From a plasmid, in the sequence record NZ_CP044066.1: DNA of 64,000 nucleotides, one strand, 5' to 3'. Shown here in pieces: positions 36,273 to 49,224 of the stretch; position 1 is the first letter of the stretch; every line of letters starts with the position of its first letter. Under the pieces are notes generated by a model. The model worked only from the letters and a program-made list of their open reading frames with translations. It made no database searches and had not been told where the DNA came from. A program made the translations under genes and the position numbers.

Positions 36273-36854
36273 TCACTTGACGGTAAGCCGCTCCGCAGTG
36301 CGATGCAACGCGACACCGACGTTGATGACGGCCTTTTCCGCAGCTTTGTCCTTGAGACCGATCCCGCCGTCGAATGCTTGATGGGCAAGTCCGAGCGTAA
36401 ATGCCTCCGGAACAACCACGACACCCAGCTTGTCCAGCACCGTGCGCAACGCAAGCTGCGAACGCAGGCCACCCAGTTGCCCTGGCGATGCAGAAACCAT
36501 TGCCGCTACCTTTCCTGCAAGCAGCGCAACGCCCGAGGTGCCGTCTTCCTGCGGGCGACTTACCCAATCCAGCGCATTCTTCAGCGCGGCGGTATAGCCG
36601 CCGTTGAACTCGGGCGTTGCAATCAGCAATGCATCGTGCTCGGCGAACACCGCCTGCAGCCGACGCACTTCTGCGGGAATCCCTTGATCGGCTTCCAAGT
36701 CGCCGTCATAGATCGGCAACGCAAAATCGCGCAGCCGGATTGACGTCACGGATGCACCCGCATCGCGCGCGCCATTTGCGGCGATATCGAGCAGCTTCTG
36801 ATTCAGCGAGCCGCGACGAGAACTGCCGCTCACCGCAAGGATTCTGATACTCAT
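36273..36854 (-). CDS. NADPH-dependent FMN reductase family protein (possible NbaA-like nitroreductase)
   Basis: MSIRILAVSGSSRRGSLNQKL...LIATPEFNGGY, typical of the NADPH-dependent FMN reductase family. Last gene of the catabolic operon. Confidence 0.75.
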   Translation of the reverse strand: MSIRILAVSGSSRRGSLNQKLLDIAANGARDAGASVTSIRLRDFALPIYDGDLEADQGIPAEVRRLQAVFAEHDALLIATPEFNGGYTAALKNALDWVSRPQEDGTSGVALLAGKVAAMVSASPGQLGGLRSQLALRTVLDKLGVVVVPEAFTLGLAHQAFDGGIGLKDKAAEKAVINVGVALHRTAERLTVK

Positions 36855-36879
36855 GCCATCTCCTGAAGAGGTCTTGAAG

Positions 36880-37374
36880 TTACTGCGCCGGCGGGGGTCG
36901 GTATTCGATTTCACCGCCCGGCAAGAAATACATCATCAGGGCCCTGCCCTTGACGGTCGGAAAATGCTCGCTCATCGGCGCAAAGACGCGCCAGCCCGCG
37001 CCATGCTCGCAGAACTGGGCGCCGGGTTCGAGCGGGATGATCATGTTGATTTCGCCTCGCGTGTGGCAGTGATACTGGCCCTTGACGTCGCGCAGCAGCC
37101 CGCTTTCCACGCTCATCTCCGCCGTCTGGTAACCAGGTTCGGCGATCCGACCCCGGCGGTACGCGGCACCGTCGATCTCGACGTAACCCGCCCATCCCTC
37201 TTCCACGCCCAGCTTCAACAGCCTGCACATCTCCTCGTACGCTTGCGTCCCGGCACCGTAGTGTTCGTTCAGGTGCGCTTCGAGTTCTTCATCGAGTGGG
37301 CGCGAACGCATGTCGTCGCACAGGCGACGCACCCATTGAAGCAACTCCTCCTTGTGTGGACCTTGCGGCAGCAT
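36880..37374 (-). CDS. DUF4863-like small protein (possible hydroxylaminobenzoate mutase/lyase-type)
   Basis: 164 aa. SD AAGGAGAG precedes the MLPQ start. Sits between the ACMSD and FMN reductase genes. Family assignment is from memory. Confidence 0.5.
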   Translation of the reverse strand: MLPQGPHKEELLQWVRRLCDDMRSRPLDEELEAHLNEHYGAGTQAYEEMCRLLKLGVEEGWAGYVEIDGAAYRRGRIAEPGYQTAEMSVESGLLRDVKGQYHCHTRGEINMIIPLEPGAQFCEHGAGWRVFAPMSEHFPTVKGRALMMYFLPGGEIEYRPPPAQ

Positions 37375-37406
37375 CTGGCTCTCCTTATTTATCTGCATCG
37401 TCTGCC

Positions 37407-38420
37407 TCAGCCTACGGCCTGGGGCAGACTGAAAAACCTGGCGGCATTACCGCCAAGAATACGGCCTTTGGCCTGATCGCTCAGACCGCCGTGGTTTTCT
37501 ACCAACGCGCCGATTGACTGCTCACCCAGCGGATACGGGTAATCGGACCCCAGTAGCACCCGTTCCTCGCCCATGACGTCTACCAGCAGGCTGAGGGATT
37601 TCGCGTCGAATACCGCGCTGTCCACGGAGAAGCGGTCCACATAGGACGACGGCAGTTTCGGGCAATCCTCACGGACGATGTCGCGATGGCGCCATGCGTT
37701 GTCGACACGCCCCAGCAGGAACGCGAAGCTGCCGCCGCCATGCGCAAAGCACAGCTTCAGGGATCGTGGAATCCGCTCGAATGCACCGGACAGGATCAGC
37801 GACAGGATGCCCAGCTGGGTTTCCGCCGGCATCGCCACCAGCCACGGCAACATCCATTTCTTCATCCGGCCATCAGTCATCATGTCCCACGGATGCACGA
37901 GTACGGGGATGCCTTCGTTGGCGCAGTGACACAGAAACTGGACCAGGCCCTCGTCGTCGAGATCGCGCGCACCCACGTGGTTGCCGATCTGCACGCCGCA
38001 ATGTCCCGAAGCGTGCGCACGCGATGCCTCCTGGCATGCCAGTTCGATATCCTGCAGCGGAACCTGCGCGAGTGCCCTGAGCCGATCCGGTGCGACCGCG
38101 CAGAGTTCGAGCGCCTTGTCGTTTATGCGCTGCGCCCACTGCCACGCCGTGCTGGCGTCGTAGCGATAGCCGAACATCACCGGTGTAGCGCACATCAGTT
38201 GCACATCGATCCGTTGTTCGTCCATCTGTTCCAGACGTCGACGCGGGTCCCACAGCGGACGGTTGACCGGCCGGAACGCCCGGTCGCCCAGCATGATCGT
38301 TCCCGTTTCGCCATCGTCCGAGACGGCAAGCCACGGCACATCCGGCTGGCCGACTTGCGCAGCTTCCTCCCGCGAAATCGTCGGGAAAAAGTGGGAGTGC
38401 ATATCAATTCGCAAGGTCAT
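37407..38420 (-). CDS. nbaD: 2-amino-3-carboxymuconate-6-semialdehyde decarboxylase (ACMSD, amidohydrolase-2 family)
   Basis: N-terminal metal-binding [13 protein letters not shown] plus amidohydrolase-2 His/Asp residues. Confidence 0.8.
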
Positions 38421-38439
38421 GGTTTCGCTATGGAAAAGC

Positions 38440-46583: not shown

Positions 46584-47107
46584 GCGTTACCCCGACCCGG
46601 GTGCAACGCCCCGCAATGCGAACAGCGTCGGCTGTCTTCCGAGGCATAGAACGCTTCGAACAAGGGCGGCAGATCCTCGACGATGCTGCGCAACTGGACT
46701 TCGACGCGGTGGACCAGGCCGTCGCAGTTCGGGCAATACCACTCAAAACCGTCCAGCGCGCCCTCCGGCCGCTGCCGCTCGATCACCAGGCAGACGCTGC
46801 CTGGCTCGGGCCGCTGTGGCGAATGCCGGACGTGTGGCGGCAGCAGGAACACATCTCCCTCGCGAAGGTCCACGCGCTCGCGCTTGCCGTCCACCATCAG
46901 GTTCAGATGCGCATTGCCCTGAATCTGATAGAAGAACTCTTCAAGCGGATCGTCGTGATAATCCGTGCGCAGATTGGGGCCGCCTACGGCAGTCACGATC
47001 AGGTCCGCTCCCGGCCATAGCTGCTGGTTTCCGACCGGCGGCATCAGAAGATGGCGACGTTCGTCGATCCAGTTGTCGAATTGGAATGGCTGTCCATGCT
47101 TCAGCAT
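46580..47107 (-). CDS. nbaC: 3-hydroxyanthranilate 3,4-dioxygenase
   Basis: Cupin core (EEFFYQIQG...[14 protein letters not shown]) plus a C-terminal rubredoxin-like CxxC...CxxC site (CPNCDGL...CSHCG). 175 aa, typical of bacterial HAAO. Confidence 0.85.
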
Positions 47108-47135
47108 TGTTGTCTCCGATCCTCAGGCTGATCGA

Positions 47136-47582
47136 TCAGCCTGCTTTCACTTGGGGCGCGTAGGCGATGGCCTTGATCTCGATGACCAGCAACGGGTGCG
47201 GCAACTGGTGCACTGCCACCGTGGTGCGCGTGGGACCGCCTTCGTCGAAGTATTCGGCATAGGTTTCGTTGTAACCCCCGAAATCGTTCATGTTGACCAG
47301 GAATGTGGTGATCTCCACCACATTCGCAAGATCCGCACCTTCGGCCTGGAGGATGTCGCGAATGTTCTCGATCACCGCTCGCGTCTGCTGCCGGATATCG
47401 ACAGTCGTGGTACCGAACGCGTCGCTGGATGCTCCGATGAAGGTGTTGTCCGGACGCCTCGAACTGGTGCCCGACACGAAGAGAAAGTCACCGGCGCGCA
47501 CCACATGGGGAAACCGCCCCCGGGGTGTTGCCTTGCCTTGCACCAGGCGCGCCTGACTGGACTGCGTCATTACCTGCTCCAT
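47136..47582 (-). CDS. RidA/YjgF-family protein, probable 2-aminomuconate deaminase
   Basis: 148-aa YjgF-family sequence in an operon with nbaC. AmnD/NbaF deaminases belong to this family. Confidence 0.65.
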
Positions 47583-47622
47583 TGATGTTGTCGTTGAGGA
47601 AATTGATTGGGAAAGGCGCGCC

Positions 47623-49224
47623 CTACTGGTTCACATCGACGTCTTTGGTTTCCTTGAGCACAAAGATGCCGAGAGCGACCGAGACACCACCCACGATGAT
47701 TGCGTACCAGAGTCCGCCCAGCACATCGCCTGACTTCACGGCGAGCGCAGTCGACATGAACGGAGCCAGTCCGCCGAAATATCCGGCGCCGATGTTGTAG
47801 GGAATGGAGATCGACGTGTAGCGAATGGCGGCCGGAAACAGTTCCACGTAATAGGCAGACATCGGGCCATAAGCCATCGCACCCCAGATCATCAGCAGAA
47901 ACAGGAGGCCATACATGACGGGACGATTGATCGCGTCCGTGTCGGCCGCTGGCGGATAACCGGCGGCAACCAGTGCTTCCTTGAACGTGCTGGCATCAAA
48001 CCCGTAGAGCGGCTTGTCGCCGATGTAGGTCACCAGAGGTTCCCCAGCTAGGCCCGGCTCCACGCGGTACGACAAACCCGCTTGTGTCAGGAAGTCTCGT
48101 GCCTTGTCACAGGCGGTATGGGCGTCGGAGAACATGCTGTCATTGCACTCGGATGAGGCGATGCGGATCGTCACGGATTGCTGGAAGTGAGCGAGTCCCG
48201 GATTCACGGCCTTGCTCAGTTGGGAAAAGATCGGGAGGAACGTCACGACTGCCATGCCGCAACCAATCAGGACGATCCATTTGCGGCCCACCTTGTCCGA
48301 CAGCCAGCCAAAGAACACGTAGAGCGGCAGCGAGAAAATCAGCGCGACAACCAAGTAACCGTAGGCGTCGCTGGCTGGCACCTTGAGCGTGGAGGTCAGG
48401 AAGTACAGGACATAGAAGTTGCATGTGTACCAGACCACGCCAACTGCGGCTTGCGCGCCAAACAACACCGCCAGCATGCGGCGCACGTTCTGCCCAACCA
48501 TCAGGCTGTCGCGTAGCGGGGCACTGGACGTCCGGTTCTCCGCTTTCATGCGCCTGAATACGGGAGACTCCGAAAGCGTCGTGCGGATGTACGTGGATAC
48601 GGCCAGGAGTAGCAGGGACGCGAGGAACGGGACACGCCAACCCCACGATGCAAAGTCTTCCGTCGAGATCCAGATCCGGCAGATCTGCGTCACCGCAAGA
48701 GACAACAGGAAGCCGAAAGTTGCGGTGGTCTGAAGCCAGCCCGTCGCGTAACCGCGGCGACCCGACGGCGTGTGTTCCGCGATATAGGCCGCGGCACCGC
48801 CGTACTCACCACCCAATGCCAACCCCTGGAGCAGACGCAGCACAATCAGGATGGCAGGCGACGCCCAGCCGAGCGTCTCGTAGGAAGGCAAGAGGCCGAT
48901 ACCGGCCGTGGAGACACCCATCAATACGACCGTGGCGAGAAACGTTGCCTTGCGCCCGGCCTTGTCGCCAAACCGGCCGAACAAGACCGCACCGAGCGGG
49001 CGGATGATAAAGCCGATACCGAATGTCGCCAGTGAGGCGAGATAACTCGCCGTGGAATTACCGGCGGGAAAAAAATGCGAGGAAAAGAAAATGGCCAGAC
49101 TTCCGTAGAGAAAGAAGTCATACCATTCGAGAACAGTACCGACACACGCCCCTACGACAACCTTGACTTCTTCACGCCTGGCCGTGCCACGCGGCCGCAC
49201 CTCTGCTGTTAGTTCGCTGCTCAT
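47623..49224 (-). CDS. MFS transporter, metabolite:H+ symporter (MHS) family
   Basis: MHS signature N-terminus ([13 protein letters not shown]...[10 protein letters not shown]) with an unusually long hydrophilic insert of about 100 aa between the two 6-TM halves. First gene of the catabolic island. Confidence 0.8.

Follow-up and report, generated by a model that had tools for sequence, protein, structure and literature searches.

We analysed a stretch of 64,000 nucleotides (nt) from a plasmid (sequence record NZ_CP044066.1; hereafter, the window), which carries a cluster of catabolic genes on its minus strand between positions 36273 and 49224. This region is very probably a complete nba/onb-type cluster for the reductive degradation of 2-nitrobenzoate (2NBA), located on a large Cupriavidus plasmid. 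The cluster is a further member of an already characterised type, present as an intact copy, and not a new kind of system. A previous reading, made from the sequence alone, had proposed a 3-hydroxyanthranilate (3-HAA) meta-cleavage cluster with an nba-type upper pathway for 2NBA, and this proposal is strongly supported by the orthologues of NbaA and NbaB that we detected and by the collinearity of the region with the onb cluster.

The cluster comprises 14 closely packed genes, all of them full length, arranged as T-F-C-A-R-porin-E-H-J-I-G-D-B-X3 (T being the transporter gene, R the regulator gene and X3 the terminal FMN reductase gene). Its coding density is 96% and its GC content is 62.3%, compared with 59.5% in the remaining window. 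Pfam searches bore out the list of 14 minus-strand genes given in the sequence-only reading, with their coordinates and families, and the double CxxC motif reported there for the C-terminus of the ring-cleaving dioxygenase is readable in the translation as CPNC...CSHC. Of the four 4-nt overlaps mentioned in that reading, we counted three, namely C/A (dioxygenase/flavin reductase), H/J (hydratase/acetaldehyde dehydrogenase) and I/G (aldolase/decarboxylase). Seven out of the ten window proteins that were looked up are exact matches to proteins in the range QET03977-QET03990, encoded by a 249,232-bp plasmid of Cupriavidus pauculus, where they bear generic names.

Enzymes of the predicted 2-nitrobenzoate pathway

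The minus-strand gene at 45933..46583 encodes a 216-amino-acid protein of the Flavin_Reduct family (PF01613, split-barrel fold), which aligned without gaps from residues 1-216 to residues 1-216 of PDB 4Z85, named '2-nitrobenzoate nitroreductase' (E 1.3e-110). Identity to this protein, the NbaA of Pseudomonas fluorescens KU-7, is 72.7% (157/216). Residues N40, D76 and E113, together with the cysteines at 39, 103, 141 and 194, are conserved; we take these residues to be the ones assigned roles in papers on KU-7 NbaA. The ungapped match indicates that the nitroreductase is present and that it is encoded between the dioxygenase and LysR genes, where its gene overlaps the dioxygenase gene by 4 nt. 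Two papers describe 4Z85 as the P. fluorescens NbaA, a split-barrel member of the short-chain flavin reductase family (PMC12363795; PMC12204192).

On sequence grounds, the predicted NbaA/OnbA orthologue and NADPH-dependent 2NBA nitroreductase of the cluster is the gene labelled 'flavin reductase'. The sequence-only reading had pointed instead to the terminal gene, because NbaA was taken there to be a member of the FMN_red family. This assignment did not hold, as the terminal protein is a flavodoxin-like PF03358 protein, in contrast to the PF01613 split barrel of NbaA, and its BLASTP comparison with 4Z85 gave an E-value of 5.8. NbaA orthologues with at least 60% identity were retrieved in 19 species-representative genomes (GTDB representatives) from Cupriavidus, Paraburkholderia, Caballeronia, Trinickia, Pseudomonas, Variovorax, Pseudorhodoferax, Pigmentiphaga and three unclassified Burkholderiales/Alcaligenaceae. 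The closest NbaA in the search of representative-genome contigs was that of C. basilensis KF708 (84%), and a further orthologue, 71% identical, is encoded on a plasmid of Polaromonas JS666.

The second upper-pathway enzyme is encoded at 36880..37374 (minus strand). It is a cupin-like protein of 164 amino acids that aligned with the Pfam profile PnbB (PF16155, formerly DUF4863; 2.7e-46), and we predict it to be the NbaB/OnbB orthologue, a 2-hydroxylaminobenzoate mutase. The start chosen for this gene is an ATG preceded by an AAGGAG ribosome-binding site, and the resulting length is that of most orthologues. The protein shares 50% identity (96% coverage) with A4UVY2/BAF56677.1, the '2-hydroxylaminobenzoate mutase' of P. 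fluorescens KU-7, 76% with a protein of Paraburkholderia terrae and 88% with a Cupriavidus protein. No relative was found in a PDB search. For comparison, a PnbB-type set was defined as PF16155 genes located beside a PF00881 nitroreductase gene and a LysR gene, in a pnbA-pnbB-pnbR arrangement. This set contains two loci, one in Methylobacterium nodulans pMNOD01 and the other in a plasmid of C. pauculus FDAARGOS_614, and its label derives from genomic context, not from characterised sequences. The HxHxxxE cupin motif is conserved in the PF16155 family. However, the PnbB-type proteins are only 34-40% identical to the window protein, compared with 49-88% for the proteins of NbaB context, that is, those linked to NbaA, and they contain insertions of approximately 20 and 4 residues that are missing from all NbaA-linked proteins. 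By sequence comparison, the window PF16155 protein belongs with the NbaB proteins, separate from the PnbB type. The sequence-only reading had likened the product of the DUF4863-like gene to hydroxylaminobenzoate mutase/lyase-type proteins, and its assignment to the NbaB type is borne out.

The remaining enzymes of the pathway, all encoded on the minus strand, were assigned as follows. The ring-cleaving enzyme is the 3-hydroxyanthranilate 3,4-dioxygenase (HAO) NbaC/OnbC (46580..47107; Pfam 3-HAO, 5e-42), which exceeded the cut-offs of the NCBIfam models TIGR03037 'anthran_nbaC' (238 bits, cut-off 146) and NF009763 (267 bits, cut-off 220) and aligned over its full length with PDB 1YFU (E 1e-94). 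The 2-amino-3-carboxymuconate-6-semialdehyde decarboxylase (ACMSD) NbaD/OnbD (37407..38420; Pfam Amidohydro_2) matched PDB 2HBV/6MGT with an E-value of about 1e-156 over residues 4-332. The 2-aminomuconate-6-semialdehyde dehydrogenase (AMSDH) NbaE/OnbE (42021..43511; Pfam Aldedh, 1e-162) aligned with two PDB chains named '2-aminomuconate 6-semialdehyde dehydrogenase' (4U3W, 1.6e-256; 4I1W, 4.9e-232) and scored 830 bits, above the cut-off, with NCBIfam TIGR03216. The matched ACMSD and AMSDH structures are presumably of Pseudomonas enzymes.

The lower part of the pathway would be completed by four enzymes. The 2-keto-4-pentenoate hydratase NbaH/OnbH (41188..42018; Pfam FAA_hydrolase) had as its top NCBIfam model NF008461, 2-keto-4-pentenoate hydratase (4e-98), slightly under the equivalog cut-off. 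The acetaldehyde dehydrogenase (acetylating) NbaJ/OnbJ (40256..41191; GTG start; Pfam AcetDehyd-dimer, 2e-59) and the 4-hydroxy-2-oxovalerate aldolase NbaI/OnbI (39204..40244; Pfam HMGL-like and DmpG_comm) were above the equivalog cut-offs of TIGR03215 (460 bits) and TIGR03217 (575 bits), respectively. The 4-oxalocrotonate (2-oxo-3-hexenedioate) decarboxylase NbaG/OnbG (38440..39207; Pfam FAA_hydrolase) matched best the dmpH decarboxylase model TIGR03218 (3e-62), under the equivalog cut-off. With NCBIfam at E <= 1e-10, no match was obtained for NbaA, NbaB, the FMN reductase or ACMSD. A RidA-family gene (47136..47582, minus strand; Pfam Ribonuc_L-PSP, 1.3e-26) adjoins the HAO gene in the window and in all related clusters, with identities of 67-89%. 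By analogy with the published onb pathway, its product is probably the 2-aminomuconate deaminase NbaF/OnbF (PMC5817917).

Orthology to characterised enzymes suggests the following route. 2NBA would enter the cell through the porin and the MHS transporter, and NbaA (45933-46583) would convert it to 2-hydroxylaminobenzoate using NADPH and FMN. NbaB (36880-37374) would then rearrange this intermediate to 3-HAA, the ring of which would be cleaved by NbaC. Decarboxylation by NbaD, oxidation by NbaE and deamination by NbaF, with release of ammonia, would follow, and NbaG, NbaH, NbaI and NbaJ would take 4-oxalocrotonate to pyruvate and acetyl-CoA. The LysR protein encoded within the cluster is the likely 2NBA-responsive regulator.

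Related clusters and alternative readings

The sequence-only reading had compared the E-H-J-I-G order with that of P. fluorescens KU-7. The match to an nba/onb lower pathway stands, but KU-7 is not the nearest model, since the collinearity with onbFCAR1EHJIGDB of Cupriavidus sp. ST-14 extends over the whole cluster. We take the KU-7 layout to be nbaEXHJIGFCDR, with nbaA and nbaB (and nbaY) elsewhere, and a KU-7-like locus in Pseudomonas agarici is consistent with it. KU-7 has the same enzymes (NbaA, 72.7% and NbaB, 50% identical to those of the window). The P. agarici locus has nbaA and nbaB in divergent orientation, with a chemoreceptor gene after nbaA and an ABC transporter after nbaB; the FMN reductase gene is embedded in this transporter, and a second RidA gene (nbaX) separates E from H. 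The window, in contrast, contains the MHS transporter and the porin and lacks both the chemoreceptor and nbaX.

In strain ST-14, a unidirectional, 2NBA-inducible and polycistronic cluster, onbX1X2FCAR1EHJIGDBX3, has been reported, in which OnbA is the nitroreductase and OnbB the mutase; 11 ORFs (open reading frames) are listed for the published core cluster, with no porin among them (PMC5817917). The order in the window equals that of ST-14 except for the additional porin. As far as that description goes, both systems share the genus, the F-C-A-R-E-H-J-I-G-D-B order, a co-oriented internal LysR gene, a transporter upstream of F and an FMN reductase gene at the end, whereas the porin and strong terminator between R and E, and the plasmid location, are features of the window. 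The FMN reductase was the only ST-14 sequence compared directly, and two C. oxalaticus loci (L042 and L043) served as proxies for the rest, as their FMN reductase and that of ST-14 cluster together at 90% identity. Identity between the proxies and the window proteins was 77-88% throughout. No equivalent of onbX1 was assigned because a single ORF of the conserved module precedes F.

Paraburkholderia terrae KU-15 possesses the cluster nbaFCTAREHGIJDB (PMC9302171), which has nearly the same order and orientation as that of the window. Paraburkholderia orthologues are 62-84% identical, and the FMN reductase gene is also the last one. In KU-15, however, the transporter gene separates C from A rather than preceding F, and there is no porin. 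Anthranilate dioxygenase genes adjoin the KU-15 cluster, which branches to anthranilate, whereas no anthranilate dioxygenase or other Rieske dioxygenase was matched in the window. This negative, like those below, refers to a Pfam scan of ORFs of the 64-kb window that included all large ones.

The same module is present in C. basilensis KF708 and in C. oxalaticus. Its proteins in KF708 are 78-92% identical to those of the window, and at the DNA level identity to KF708 is about 80% between 49449 and 36316. A megablast search of PLSDB plasmids with 13.5 kb retrieved no match above approximately 75% identity. Since the homology to KF708 breaks off abruptly at 36316 and 49449, with differing flanks beyond, the module is a discrete unit. 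A tyrosine recombinase of 208 amino acids (35148..35774, plus strand; Pfam Phage_integrase, 1.2e-17) is convergent with the end of the cluster and lies approximately 500 bp past its last gene, as the sequence-only reading had noted; the adjacency is confirmed, but not a link to the module. The 13 kb could be a genomic island mobilised by this recombinase, in line with its position, with a GC content in the cluster about 3 points above that of the surroundings, with the occurrence of a discrete module in differing contexts and with other mobile-element genes in the window (IS21, a resolvase and a second integrase). We consider this unlikely. A tRNA scan detected no tRNA in the window, and the repeat search recovered no flanking direct repeats beyond 16-20-mers at chance level. 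Moreover, the module is present in KF708 and C. oxalaticus without a neighbouring integrase, and near-identical integrases adjoin unrelated cargo in other genomes.

A different question is whether the cluster acts on 2NBA at all. HAO, ACMSD, AMSDH, the deaminase and the meta-pathway genes are common to the bacterial route from tryptophan to 3-HAA, and the region might be no more than the lower part of the catabolism of tryptophan (through kynurenine) or of anthranilate, with the flavin reductase, PF16155 and FMN_red genes as passengers. A lower-pathway locus in the C. metallidurans CH34 chromid illustrates this arrangement, as it encodes E, H, J, I, G, F and D (AMSDH, meta-pathway enzymes, RidA deaminase and ACMSD) with 66-80% identity to the window proteins and has no NbaA, NbaB or X3 within 12 kb. 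In tryptophan clusters, 3-HAA is supplied by kynurenine enzymes. We regard this interpretation as very improbable for the window. The NbaA and NbaB orthologues are placed inside the operon, where C and A overlap by 4 nt and D and B are 32 nt apart, and their in-operon position is kept across genera. None of the kynureninase, formamidase, TDO (TDO/IDO) or KMO families was found among the ORFs scanned, in agreement with the lack of kynurenine-pathway genes stated in the sequence-only reading. In addition, the collinear ST-14 cluster is specifically induced by 2NBA (PMC5817917). The CH34 locus (L041, chromid positions 1890027-1918679; order E-H-J-I-G-F-D) is a useful contrast between the tryptophan/aminophenol type and the nba type.

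Alternatively, the upper enzymes might act on another nitroaromatic compound, either 4-nitrobenzoate, in a pnb-type pathway with a PnbB lyase, or another ortho-nitro or hydroxylamino acid. The pnb genes (encoding the nitroreductase PnbA, the lyase PnbB and PnbR) share with the nba genes the logic of reducing the nitro to a hydroxylamino group, on which a cofactor-free PF16155 enzyme then acts. The current Pfam name of PF16155 is 'PnbB, 4-hydroxylaminobenzoate lyase', several database entries name close homologues in the same way, and identity to the characterised KU-7 NbaB is just 50%. There is nevertheless very little to recommend this alternative. PnbA is a PF00881 protein unrelated to NbaA, and the lyase yields protocatechuate, which feeds protocatechuate cleavage and not the cleavage of 3-HAA. 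The cluster encodes a 3-HAA dioxygenase and ACMSD but no protocatechuate dioxygenase, and neither genes for this enzyme nor PF00881 nitroreductase genes, such as a PnbA type in the cluster, were present among the window ORFs scanned. Furthermore, the window PF16155 protein lacks both PnbB-type insertions and groups by identity with NbaB, and the window NbaA is closely similar to the 2NBA-specific enzyme. The presence of ACMSD and of a 3-HAO cupin as ring-cleavage enzyme ruled out an amn/nbz 2-aminophenol cluster.

Some points weigh against the assignment to 2NBA. Substrate specificity is predicted here from the 50-73% identity to the KU-7 enzymes and from the collinearity, and the comparison with OnbA and OnbB of ST-14 was made through the C. 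oxalaticus proxies. An extra supply of 3-HAA derived from tryptophan may exist, as the scan for kynurenine genes covered ORFs of the 64-kb window. Finally, the transcripts of ST-14 are reported as polycistronic (PMC5817917), in contrast to the two transcription units predicted below for the window, between which read-through is possible.

Transport, candidate operators and the terminal FMN reductase

The first gene of the cluster (47623..49224, minus strand) encodes an MHS-family transporter of the MFS superfamily with 533 amino acids (Pfam Sugar_tr/MFS_1), which is the counterpart of nbaT and probably of onbX2. It is an exact match to QET03990.1, 'MHS family MFS transporter', of the C. pauculus plasmid. 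It is 92% identical to the product of the first gene of the KF708 cluster and 70-73% identical to the transporter located within Paraburkholderia nba clusters. From this context, it is the probable 2NBA uptake protein. The transporter is unusually long, and Pfam Sugar_tr covers residues 23-239 alone. Approximately 100 residues, from about 335 to 440, are hydrophilic and resemble an inserted soluble domain; the KF708 orthologue has the same length.

The regulator NbaR/OnbR1 (44936..45898, minus strand; Pfam HTH_1 and LysR_substrate) is co-oriented with the structural genes. At the equivalent position, Cupriavidus clusters encode regulators with 88-90% identity to it, and Paraburkholderia clusters encode regulators with 71-73%. 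Between the regulator and nbaE, a Porin_4 outer membrane porin is encoded (43718..44803, minus strand; 1.3e-55). The window, KF708 and one of the C. oxalaticus genomes (L042, 2084-3166) have a full-length porin gene, whereas a second C. oxalaticus genome (L043, 2924-3208) retains a remnant of 99 amino acids and the Paraburkholderia and Pseudomonas clusters have no porin. The porin is a variable insert, and the remnant would explain a porin-less map of the ST-14 type.

Past the porin, we found the terminator that the sequence-only reading had placed there, an intrinsic terminator-like hairpin on the minus strand (43640..43681, read from 43681 to 43640) with a 14-bp stem, 10 G-C pairs and a following run of T9. 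The corresponding spacers of KF708 and C. oxalaticus have no such hairpin, which is exclusive to the copy in the window. Further downstream, 74 bp ahead of nbaE, lies a candidate operator box in gene orientation, TATTCCACGGCCTTATATCA (43586..43605, minus strand), which might mark an internal promoter. A second, inverted copy of the box, TATTCCACGCTGTTATATCA (49335..49354, plus strand), is located 110 bp upstream of the transporter start and is a candidate operator for the first promoter. The shared 20-bp pattern, TATTCCACG-N3-TTATATCA, has exactly two matches in the 64 kb, compared with 0.04 expected.

The box upstream of nbaE is exactly conserved in KF708 and C. oxalaticus and degenerate in Paraburkholderia, where the degenerate boxes are found upstream of nbaE and, in one case, of nbaF. 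The box upstream of the transporter is contained within 225 bp of upstream DNA that is still homologous to KF708, which has it in the same place with one mismatch. We propose the box as a candidate binding site for the LysR regulator of the cluster. Taken together, the two boxes and the terminator past the porin predict two regulated units in the window copy, T-F-C-A-R-porin and E-H-J-I-G-D-B-X3, each of which would lie behind a box, with the terminator between them. A biosensor study of ST-14 states that promoter and operator were unknown. A scan for sigma-70 promoters returned fewer matches than shuffled sequence and was not used.

The final gene of the operon, at 36273..36854 (minus strand), encodes an NAD(P)H-dependent FMN reductase family protein of the ChrR/YieF class (Pfam FMN_red, 1.8e-42). 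Its top PDB matches are 1RTT, 3SVL (YieF) and ChrR-type quinone/chromate reductases. The protein shares 82% identity with the 'FMN reductase' AKQ44175.1 of Cupriavidus sp. ST-14, and its gene is presumably the counterpart of onbX3. X3 homologues (46-81% identical) were present in all 15 NbaA-centred loci in which NbaB was visible and the flank was long enough, in Cupriavidus, Paraburkholderia, Caballeronia, Pseudomonas, Variovorax, Pigmentiphaga and an unclassified Alcaligenaceae bacterium. The gene is also kept with nbaB in reshuffled loci, namely that of the Polaromonas JS666 plasmid, which is additional to the 15, and the KU-7-like locus of P. agarici, where the order is nbaB-SBP-X3-ABC transporter. 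In a metagenome-assembled genome of Pseudomonas, a homologue with 58% identity was found between a PF00881 nitroreductase gene and pnbR-pnbB, beside protocatechuate dioxygenase genes. Coordinates of X3 homologues are 7147-7752 in L010, 10794-11414 in L040, 8001-8585 in L045 and 8001-8588 in L044.

It is conceivable, though on balance doubtful, that X3 is no passenger but a third enzyme dedicated to the upper pathways for nitrobenzoates. Two observations speak against a dedicated role: a homologue with 70% identity in the Burkholderia cepacia complex is stand-alone, its neighbours being a LysR and an MFS gene, and no X3 homologue is present in two other pnb-type loci. Because of this stand-alone homologue, an FMN reductase subfamily exclusive to nba clusters was ruled out. 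X3 could regenerate the hydroxylamine from auto-oxidised nitroso or azoxy benzoates, act as a reductase of the 3-HAA quinone-imine or give rise to an anthranilate branch of the KU-15 type. Our best guess is that X3 is a conserved accessory protein that would reduce reactive nitroso, azoxy and quinone-imine by-products, in a protective or salvage role. In the accessible literature on nba/onb clusters, we found no function for the FMN_red end gene.

Plasmid surroundings and significance

The rest of the window fits an accessory region of a plasmid. It encodes a KaiC-like ATPase (10704-12212), a second tyrosine integrase of 304 amino acids (12868-13782), a resolvase (14057-14686) and the IS21 genes istA (21586-22647) and istB (20762-21589). 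On the other side of the cluster, the minus strand carries a Fic/DUF4172 protein gene (51419-52627) and three tandem HSP20 small heat-shock genes (53751-54317, 54413-54817 and 54834-55409), adjoined by the gene for a CAP-domain protein (55441-56631).

Copies of the 208-amino-acid recombinase with more than 90% identity occur in Ralstonia and other Cupriavidus (L046, L047 and L048), at the edge of differing cargo such as a lactonase/aldehyde dehydrogenase cluster or HEPN/Imm-type genes. This recombinase may mark a recurrent junction of variable regions. Just past it, positions 30802-34714 encode an MFS transporter, a divergent LysR regulator, an SDR protein and a type II haloacid dehalogenase (exact match to QET03977.1). 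This second small catabolic unit suggests that the plasmid region collects modules for the degradation of xenobiotics.

The public labels of the key proteins are only generic ('flavin reductase family protein', 'DUF4863/4-hydroxylaminobenzoate lyase' and 'NAD(P)H-dependent oxidoreductase'), and a specific function is now proposed for them. The FMN reductase and the shared candidate operator box are the sole leads that go beyond what is published. The Cupriavidus 2NBA module also occurs on a large C. pauculus plasmid, a finding relevant to the spread of this trait and to work in bioremediation and biosensors.

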